Below are positions 36,318 through 37,505 of a DNA stretch of 64,000 bases, in pieces. Under the pieces are notes generated by a model, which saw only the letters and a list, made by a program, of their open reading frames with translations, had not been told where the DNA came from and did no database searches. The DNA comes from Klebsiella phage RCIP0102, in the sequence record OR532896.1; one strand, written 5' to 3'. How positions within the stretch are numbered: the first letter of the stretch is position 1; the number at the start of each line of letters is the position of its first letter. A program made the translations under genes and the position numbers.

Positions 36318-36767
36318 TTACCGATTATTTATAGCATTTCTTAAACGATAAAGTTGATTACAGAATTCGCGTTCAGTCAAAATCGTTTCAGAAATTTTAT
36401 TTTTACCCATACTGTGAGTGAGCGTAGCATTCCGGGTAGCAGCCAAAGCTTTTCTGAATCCTTCATTTTTACTAAGTGCATCGTATGCTCCTGTCAGTAA
36501 ATTCTGATACGCTTCTGAAGCACGATGGATTGGCACGCCTTTCCAATAAAGTGTTTGAGTTGGCCACCACCGTTTCTTTTTACCTTTGAACTTAGCCGAT
36601 TTACCAACTAATGTACATACATGTGCTTGCATTTCAGGCGAAGAAAATTTGAGGGACTGCAAGAATCCCTCCATTGAGGCACATTCTACGCCATCATAGA
36701 TAAATTTATGAGGAGCAAAGTTGCTCAAAGCACATGATGGATATGAACTACCTGAACCAATATCCAT
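36318..36767 (-). CDS. NADAR/YbiA-like (DUF1768) ADP-ribose-processing domain protein
   Basis: 149 aa; LSNFAPHKFIYDGVECASMEGFLQSLKF parallels YbiA FSNFAAWPIKVDGKTWPTSEHYFQAQKF. Confidence 0.7.
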   Translation of the reverse strand: MDIGSGSSYPSCALSNFAPHKFIYDGVECASMEGFLQSLKFSSPEMQAHVCTLVGKSAKFKGKKKRWWPTQTLYWKGVPIHRASEAYQNLLTGAYDALSKNEGFRKALAATRNATLTHSMGKNKISETILTEREFCNQLYRLRNAINNR

Positions 36768-37325
36768 TTACTTTTCCTTCATGTATTTCAACCAATCAAC
36801 TTTTAATGGGCTTTCTTTTTGTTTATACGTAATTCCAACATGGAATGCAACCGGAGCGTCAGGAATACGGATTTCTTCTTTAATATCGAAGATTTCTACT
36901 TTCTCAAATACCCGCATGAAATCATAGTCGTATTCAATCGGATTACCTAGCCAAGCCTGAATAGCATACATAACTTCATTTGAACAAGAATAATGATTAT
37001 CTAAATAAGCATCAAACTCTTCGTCTGAGCAATCATATGCAGGAACATCAACACCAAAGAATTTCTTGGAAAATTCAGGAGTTACATACTTCTGTTCAGT
37101 ATGAAGCTTTTCAAGAATTGCTTCATGGTTGTAATCATTATTTCCAAGGCATTCACCACGCCGACCACGAGAAGAGAACCATTCAAGAACGTGAATTACT
37201 TGATTAATCTCTTCTTTTTCTAAGCCATAAACCATTTGGGTAGAATATCGATCGGCATCATTTTCCCAAGTGGTAATTGCCATTGCTAAGCCTTTAGGAA
37301 TAACTTGTCCAAATTTAACTTTCAT
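36768..37325 (-). CDS. hypothetical protein co-transcribed with the NADAR gene
   Basis: 185-aa ORF, stop abuts the NADAR start; no recognisable motif. Confidence 0.5.
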   Translation of the reverse strand: MKVKFGQVIPKGLAMAITTWENDADRYSTQMVYGLEKEEINQVIHVLEWFSSRGRRGECLGNNDYNHEAILEKLHTEQKYVTPEFSKKFFGVDVPAYDCSDEEFDAYLDNHYSCSNEVMYAIQAWLGNPIEYDYDFMRVFEKVEIFDIKEEIRIPDAPVAFHVGITYKQKESPLKVDWLKYMKEK

Positions 37326-37326
37326 T

Positions 37327-37505
37327 ATACATTCCTCATATCTATTCGTTCTAAGGTATATTCTTTAAGAACAATCTGTTGACCACTTTTCAACAAGAAT
37401 AATTGAATAGGATTTAATCCAAACCCGTGTTCTAAATCATGGTCAGTTAAATTTCTGTCGCAATAATTGAAATACATGTCAATTCTAACGAGAATGGTTT
37501 TCATA
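37327..37505 (-). CDS. small hypothetical protein
   Basis: 59-aa ORF with ATGA overlap onto the 185-aa ORF. Confidence 0.35.

Follow-up and report, generated by a model that had tools for sequence, protein, structure and literature searches.

An adfN-type NADAR gene among the tRNA genes of a JD18-like Klebsiella phage: family, setting and probable function

Gene 30.3 of bacteriophage T4 has been renamed adfN, for "anti-DarT factor NADAR" (Johannesman et al., Nat Commun 2025, PMC11825919). The subject of this text is a gene of the same family in Klebsiella phage RCIP0102 (sequence record OR532896.1), found at 36318-36767 on the minus strand of a stretch of 64,000 nucleotides (nt) that was analysed as a whole and is called the window below; all coordinates refer to it. 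In T-even phages AdfN is required, and also suffices, for resistance to DarTG1, and its function requires the residues E36 and K43. The protein strips ADP-ribose from DarT1-modified DNA in vivo and in vitro, and in the RB69 allele a C-terminal truncation of 15 residues is enough to cripple it (PMC11825919). DarTG1 resistance has been demonstrated only for AdfN-T4, AdfN-Bas32 and AdfN-Bas60 (PMC11825919). On DNA, the T4 NADAR reverses the ADP-ribosylation of guanine but not that of thymine (PMC11125620). Phage NADARs form one of four NADAR families, and their third catalytic residue is a His (PMC12945103), as against Glu in YbiA and Asp in DarG1 (PMC11125620, PMC12945103). The nearest relatives of the gp30.3 proteins outside phages are reported to be the DarG1 NADARs (PMC11825919). 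YbiA, from Escherichia coli, serves a housekeeping function in swarming and in the metabolism of riboflavin (PMC11825919, PMC11125620, PMC12945103).

The window belongs to a JD18-like (Jiaodavirus) T4-type Klebsiella phage, and the 2.5 kilobases (kb) around the gene are 99% identical to several genomes of Klebsiella and Raoultella phages. It is likely that the gene is the Jiaodavirus orthologue of T4 adfN and encodes a single-domain anti-DarT1 NADAR, and that the two open reading frames (ORFs) upstream of it are independent of this function. An earlier reading made from the letters alone, here called the sequence-only reading, had proposed that a phage-borne NADAR would serve as a counter-defence against DarT. 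On family membership in gp30.3 and the T4 AdfN work (PMC11825919, PMC11125620) this is the best reading of the gene; as a general idea it is correct, but it has already been published for the gp30.3 family.

The NADAR protein and its family

The gene encodes a basic protein of 149 residues (16.8 kDa, isoelectric point 9.6) that contains LSNFAPHKFIYDGVECASMEGFLQSLKF at residues 14-41. It matches the Pfam family PF08010 (Phage_30_3, "Bacteriophage protein GP30.3") with E=4.6e-56 and 188.9 bits, the cut-off being 36 bits, and the match extends over residues 9-143 and takes in positions 2-137 of a profile with 138 positions. It also matches phrog_652 (E=2.1e-53). The sequence-only reading had labelled the protein NADAR/DUF1768 and had named a search with PF08719 (DUF1768) as a check, with a missing match as grounds for refutation. 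Even at E<=10 the protein does not match PF08719, but this does not count as a refutation, since the phage clade has a Pfam family of its own, PF08010. The missing match reflects the way in which the Pfam models are partitioned and not a lack of homology. The DUF1768 half of the label thus has to be replaced by PF08010, while the NADAR half is borne out by the fold and by profile alignment.

No match was found in a sequence search of the PDB, either with the single protein or with a profile of 53 sequences. A model built with AlphaFold2 on 53 homologues reached a predicted local distance difference test score (pLDDT) of 83.8 and a predicted template modelling score (pTM) of 0.80. The fold expected of a NADAR is that of YbiA, an alpha-helical core with two small flanking beta-hairpins. 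When the model was compared with the PDB by Foldseek, the best match was E. coli YbiA (2b3w, E=7.4e-4, probability 1.0, TM score 0.63), followed by a weak match to a Phytophthora NADAR (8bau, E=0.43, probability 0.57) and nothing else that was meaningful. Alignment of profiles by hhalign agrees (E=1e-4 against YbiA), with LSNFAPH paired with FSNFAAW and MEGFLQSLKF paired with SEHYFQAQKF. The description "YbiA-like" in the sequence-only reading is imprecise: YbiA is the best structural match, but the protein falls in the phage NADAR clade and has His in place of Glu.

The protein aligns with T4 gp30.3 at 42% identity, and its E33 and K40 (codons 36669-36671 and 36648-36650) match E36 and K43 of the T4 protein. 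Both residues are part of the motif E-x2-[FY]-x-Q-x2-K-F and are invariant in the 53 homologues, as is H118 (codon 36414-36416), which aligns with the His of LKHS in T4. The C-terminal helix is intact, since the model has a helix at residues 132-147 and the alignment with T4 gp30.3 runs to its end. What is established here is the family, the fold, the intact length and the conservation of the named residues, and on profile matches and the predicted structure the protein is assigned to the NADAR superfamily and, within it, to the phage NADAR clade. Its subclade was collected as 80 viral contigs with a NADAR 58-99% identical to the 149-residue protein. These contigs include phages of the Klebsiella, Yersinia, Aeromonas and Vibrio types, and the subclade occurs in records of Klebsiella, Cronobacter, Aeromonas, Vibrio and Rhizobium phages.

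Some further observations concern the family. Of the 296 positions of the phrog_652 profile, the NADAR protein covers only 129-275; some members of that family are therefore extended N-terminally by about 125 residues. A candidate defence component of PADLOC, PDC-M42C, matches the NADAR weakly (E=8e-4). In 31 of the 80 loci an alternative frame of at least 50 codons is open inside the NADAR gene (for example at 6083-6271 of locus L015), which recalls the annotated internal gene 30.3' of T4; its retention may be no more than a consequence of how strongly the NADAR gene is conserved at the nucleotide level. On some large viral contigs a second full or partial ORF of the gp30.3 type is found 0.6-2.2 kb upstream of the first (L059:3327-3755, L045:5013-5156 and L089:5243-5362), which suggests tandem duplication. 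The JD18-like genomes have a single NADAR copy, and there is no second copy in the window.

We infer the substrate, the DarT1 target and the in vivo role of the protein from its T4 homologue, and a mechanism can be proposed on that basis. The NADAR gene would be expressed from the transcript of the tRNA cluster, possibly early, by analogy with the tRNA genes of T4, which are classed as early. The basic enzyme would then bind nucleic acid that DarT1 or a similar toxin has ADP-ribosylated on the N2 of guanine, and Glu33, Lys40 and His118 would hydrolyse the N-glycosidic bond, so that ADP-ribose is released and the repaired template can be replicated again. Its role would be that of an orphan, antitoxin-like counter-defence. 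The two upstream ORFs would be co-transcribed with it and are translationally coupled here, yet they would be independent residents of a plastic tRNA region.

Several points weigh against this proposal. Unless a T-even phage is infecting the cell, T4 AdfN does not neutralise DarT1, and a further phage factor seems to be needed (PMC11825919). The T4 NADAR also removes guanosine-ADP-ribose from RNA in vitro (PMC11833690), and the physiological substrate could differ. The protein is just 42% identical to the enzyme that was tested experimentally. Scans for sigma-70 promoters, MotA boxes and promoters of the T4 early type gave no convincing promoter for the three-gene cassette. Finally, the tight translational coupling of the NADAR gene to the 185-codon ORF before it is compatible with a functional link specific to this lineage, although it is not evidence for one.

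Target, neighbourhood and the upstream reading frames

One alternative is that the enzyme acts on ADP-ribosylated RNA or tRNA, or on soluble ADP-ribose derivatives, and not on DNA modified by DarT1, which would fit the position of the gene in a tRNA cluster. All NADAR families, the T4 enzyme included, remove guanosine-ADP-ribose from RNA in vitro (PMC11833690, PMC12945103), and comparative genomics has predicted that phage NADARs act on soluble ADP-ribose derivatives or by-products of RNA repair (PMC9503650). In the subclade, a tRNA lies within 1 kb of the gp30.3-type gene in 26 of the 80 loci, in most of these with tRNAs on both sides, and 17 listed copies of a tRNA-like RNA, described below, lie near the NADAR gene. 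Against this, resistance to DarTG1 by removal of ADP-ribose from DNA is the one phenotype that the family is known to have in vivo (PMC11825919), the T4 copy adjoins the ligase gene and not tRNAs, and 43 of the 80 related loci have no tRNA within 6 kb. The tRNA regions of T4-like phages collect small accessory genes in general, T4 segB being one example. We regard this alternative as unlikely. The sequence-only reading had described the operon as inserted between tRNA subclusters; the same count of 26 loci does not support a novel insertion. In Tequatrovirus and Gaprivervirus the arrangement is a different one, with the gp30.3 gene next to the ligase gene. When ORFs within 2.5 kb of the NADAR gene were clustered over the 80 loci, no universally conserved neighbour emerged, as no family was present in more than 13 of them, except for the alternative-frame ORF inside the NADAR gene.

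A related idea, which also seems improbable to us, is that the subclade differs in function from T4 AdfN, being either independent of a helper or active on ADP-ribosylated RNA or tRNA; besides its 42% identity to the T4 protein, this subclade shows high internal conservation and is often located in tRNA clusters. The tRNA-like RNA could then be tied to it as a mimic, a decoy or a processing signal. In a weaker version, the protein of 185 residues that is encoded directly upstream and carries a WENDxD motif would be a helper specific to this lineage.

The layout of the cassette is established by direct reading of the sequence. Three ORFs on the minus strand, of 59, 185 and 149 codons, lie between a tRNA with the anticodon CAU and a cluster of tRNAs for Thr, Leu and Arg, with the positions given in the sequence-only reading. 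The stop of the 59-codon ORF (37325-37504) and the start of the 185-codon ORF (36768-37325) overlap in TAATG, and the TAA stop of the latter immediately adjoins the ATG of the NADAR gene, so the coupling noted in that reading is real. A Shine-Dalgarno sequence, GAGGAG, precedes the ATG of the 59-codon ORF, about 17 nt past the 3' end of tRNA-Met.

The 185-residue protein belongs to phrog_2290, a family of no assigned function, and is 98% identical to JD18 gp126. It is acidic (isoelectric point 4.9), and none of the families in Pfam, NCBIfam and PADLOC matches it. In an exhaustive HMMER search 206 representatives of its family were found; this family occurs only in phages and consists almost entirely of single-domain proteins of about 110-220 residues. 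The conserved core of the protein here comprises residues 1-160, and the tail at 161-185 is specific to the lineage and predicted with low confidence. The family has an invariant W-E-N-D-x-D motif, encoded here at 37251-37268; in the model this motif falls in the turn that joins the first and second predicted strands. Almost invariant are also Gly12, Gly61 and Arg138. The sequence-only reading had proposed structure prediction for both proteins. The NADAR model matches YbiA, and in a BFVD fold search the 185-residue protein matched only uncharacterised phage proteins. The tail (YKQKESPLKVDWLKYMKEK, 36771-36830 on the minus strand) resembles the C-terminus of T4 Acb1/57B (YKEPLKLDWADDLK) over 16 residues (BLASTP E=0.099). 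This likeness is probably due to chance, and the tails differ in other members of the family.

The sequence-only reading took this protein to be a possible accessory subunit of the NADAR and the three ORFs to be one unit. In its fullest form, the proposal is that the 185-residue protein is a subunit or cofactor of the NADAR in a single operon directed against ADP-ribosylation, possibly the very phage factor that AdfN needs. The coupled stops and starts, which leave no intergenic space, speak for it, as do Karamvirus-type loci in which a homologue lies 350-450 nt upstream of a NADAR 82-92% identical to the one here. T4 AdfN is moreover reported to need a further T-even factor (PMC11825919), and the family occurs in T2, where the homologue is in the tRNA region, and in RB69. 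The wider distribution of the genes tells against it. A homologue is present within 6 kb in only 12 of the 80 NADAR loci and lacking over that distance in the other 68. Looking from the other side, distant members of the 185-residue family were taken from 28 contigs, and on none of these is a gp30.3-type NADAR nearby. The two genes abut only in JD18-type loci. In most other loci where both occur, two small ORFs lie between the 185-residue homologue and the NADAR gene, and in three the genes are 1.2-4.7 kb apart or in reversed order. In phage VR20 the homologue is at about 70 kb and gene 30.3 at about 127 kb, some 56 kb apart, and gene 30.3 there adjoins the ligase locus as it does in VR7. The two proteins do not co-evolve, because a comparison of Jiaodavirus with Karamvirus gives 88% identity for the NADAR and only 40% for the 185-residue protein. 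A profile search of the whole T4 genome in six frames found AdfN but no member of the 185-residue family (best E=0.48), and the family cannot be the T-even helper of AdfN because it is absent from T4, where AdfN is fully functional. Homology to T4 gp30.2, whose gene naturally adjoins 30.3, was also considered; tblastn gave E=0.1, but the hhalign probability is 0.2%, and this candidate was rejected. We conclude that the juxtaposition and coupling of the two genes are a local arrangement of the JD18 lineage and not a conserved module. A partnership is already largely refuted as a general rule, and we consider it very unlikely in this phage too.

The 59-codon ORF is an ORFan (phrog_31031, E=7.6e-47). 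Just 44 phage records contain it, with identities of 95% or more in all of them; close versions of the 149- and 185-codon genes occur in about 140 records. In Klebsiella phage 15882-3-3, about 26 nt directly follow tRNA-Met in place of the stretch corresponding to window positions 37319-37517. The ORF is thus part of a facultative indel, some 200 nt long and lying directly 3' of tRNA-Met. Most close relatives lack the ORF, so the notion of the three genes as one conserved unit is not supported, and nothing ties the ORF to ADP-ribose chemistry.

Two other functions have been put, or could be put, on the 149-residue protein. A housekeeping N-glycosidase of the YbiA type, acting on intermediates of the riboflavin pathway, is suggested by the structural match to YbiA and by a weak match of residues 11-46 to TIGR02464 (ribofla_fusion, E=0.028), but the latter scores 14.7 bits where the cut-off is 73.7, the third catalytic residue is His and not the Glu of YbiA, and the published phylogeny places the gp30.3 proteins nearest to DarG1 NADARs (PMC11825919), so we give this reading next to no weight. 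The label "anti-CBASS protein acb1" on a 99%-identical ORF in Klebsiella phages Roth16 and Roth17, which would make the protein an anti-CBASS phosphodiesterase, is already refuted by sequence and fold, as the protein has no similarity to T4 Acb1/57B (BLASTP E=30), has a NADAR fold, and lies about 5 kb from the true homologue (41687-42142, minus strand, 79% identical to T4 57B), so that the chance of its being Acb1 is negligible.

A tRNA-like RNA and the surrounding tRNA region

The window is syntenic with the e–nudE–tRNA–57B–gene 1 region of T4. The cassette is bounded on its 5' side by tRNA-Met(CAU) (37522-37598, minus strand; ARAGORN, and Rfam tRNA with 52.5 bits) and on its 3' side by tRNA-Arg(UCU) (36099-36175, minus strand; ARAGORN and Rfam), which is followed by tRNA-Leu (36010-36094) and tRNA-Thr (35813-35888), both called by ARAGORN. 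A pattern scan alone points to a putative terminator, a GC hairpin with a T-run at 37628-37643 on the minus strand, between an upstream ORF of 74 codons and tRNA-Met.

The spacer of 140 nt from the NADAR stop to tRNA-Arg is filled by a conserved RNA of 131 nt (36177-36307, minus strand). It has an acceptor stem of 7 base pairs, a T-arm and a D region like that of type II tRNAs, and its anticodon arm is lengthened by a structured insert, some 45 nt in size, to a long hairpin with bulges. ARAGORN with default settings does not call it, nor does Rfam RF00005 at its gathering score; relaxed ARAGORN reports it as similar to tRNA-Tyr(gta) with a 45-nt "intron". Because it is found only with relaxed thresholds, the element is filed as tRNA-like and not as a tRNA. 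Among the copies listed, a covariance model finds 17 that are full length and score above 90 bits; all of them are on loci that contain a NADAR, and in most the RNA closely follows the NADAR gene. In the alignment 96.9% of cells are paired and 17 of 24 pairs have changed on both sides, and covariation scores 0.698, where shuffles give 0.257 (0 of 500) and slid partners at most 0.114.

A late-promoter match, TATAAATA at about 36327-36334, was considered as a driver of this RNA and rejected, since among 16 loci checked it is present only in the JD18-type locus L010; the match is probably a chance one. The same covariance model also has a weak match (24 bits, E=0.004) at 35726-35808 on the minus strand, between tRNA-Thr and an ORF of 57 codons. 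Neither ARAGORN nor Rfam calls anything there, and it could be a degenerate remnant of a type II tRNA.

A homologue of T4 NudE, 55% identical, is encoded at 30820-31257 on the minus strand, and the T4 record annotates NudE as a Nudix hydrolase active on ADP-ribose. The NudE and Acb1 homologues are both within about 6 kb of the NADAR gene, one on each side, and because they flank it the tRNA region can be said to concentrate several genes related to nucleotides or ADP-ribose.

Significance and comparison with known systems

The main value of these results is corrective. They allow the gene to be annotated confidently as a phage NADAR of the AdfN type, that is, as a predicted anti-DarT1 ADP-ribosylglycohydrolase. 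Public records of JD18-like phages now label the ORF "hypothetical protein" or, wrongly, "anti-CBASS protein acb1". The 185-residue neighbour is also removed as a tempting candidate for the factor needed by T4 AdfN. For phage therapy with Klebsiella Jiaodavirus phages, resistance to defences of the DarTG1 type is predicted. Smaller leads are the phage-only WENDxD family, which has no known fold, and the covarying tRNA-like RNA, which has no match in Rfam.

Of the known systems, T4 gp30.3/AdfN belongs to the same Pfam and PHROG family, is of nearly the same length (152 residues against 149) and likewise consists of a single core domain. The Glu, the Lys, the His typical of phage NADARs and the intact C-terminal helix are common to both. 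The differences are of position and of distance: T4 30.3 lies between 30.4 and 30.2 by the ligase gene, whereas the Klebsiella phage gene is inside the tRNA cluster, and the protein, at its 42% identity to that of T4, is in a subclade of its own. DarG1, for example that of Geobacter/Trichlorobacter lovleyi or of E. coli C7, is of the same superfamily, and the removal of ADP-ribose from guanine is the chemistry predicted for the phage protein too, but DarG1 has an N-terminal extension, Asp at the third position and a gene beside that of DarT1, whereas the phage protein is a bare core with His and an orphan without a toxin gene. E. coli YbiA is the best structural match and its LSNF...E..Q..KF motif can be aligned, but the identity is 15%, the protein belongs to PF08719/DUF1768, and it has Glu at the third catalytic position.

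Two further comparisons concern the setting of the gene. T4 segB lies between tRNA-Ile and tRNA-Arg, immediately upstream of the latter and so in the slot within the tRNA cluster that is equivalent to that of the cassette, and the sequence-only reading was right in saying that a homing endonuclease is found there in T4. The endonuclease is unrelated to the proteins of the cassette and no segB homologue was detected in the window, so the comparison shows only that the slot is a hot spot for accessory genes. The tRNA-like RNA is similar in size and in its position in the tRNA region to RNAC and RNAD of T4, which are small stable RNAs with no assigned role (also called species 1 and 2 RNAs), and T4 rnaC likewise carries a GGTTCGAATCC T-arm. 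The T4 RNAs align poorly with it, however, and the covariance model of the window element finds neither, which led us to reject identity with rnaC or rnaD; homology is not established, and the element may be an analogue of RNAC and RNAD.

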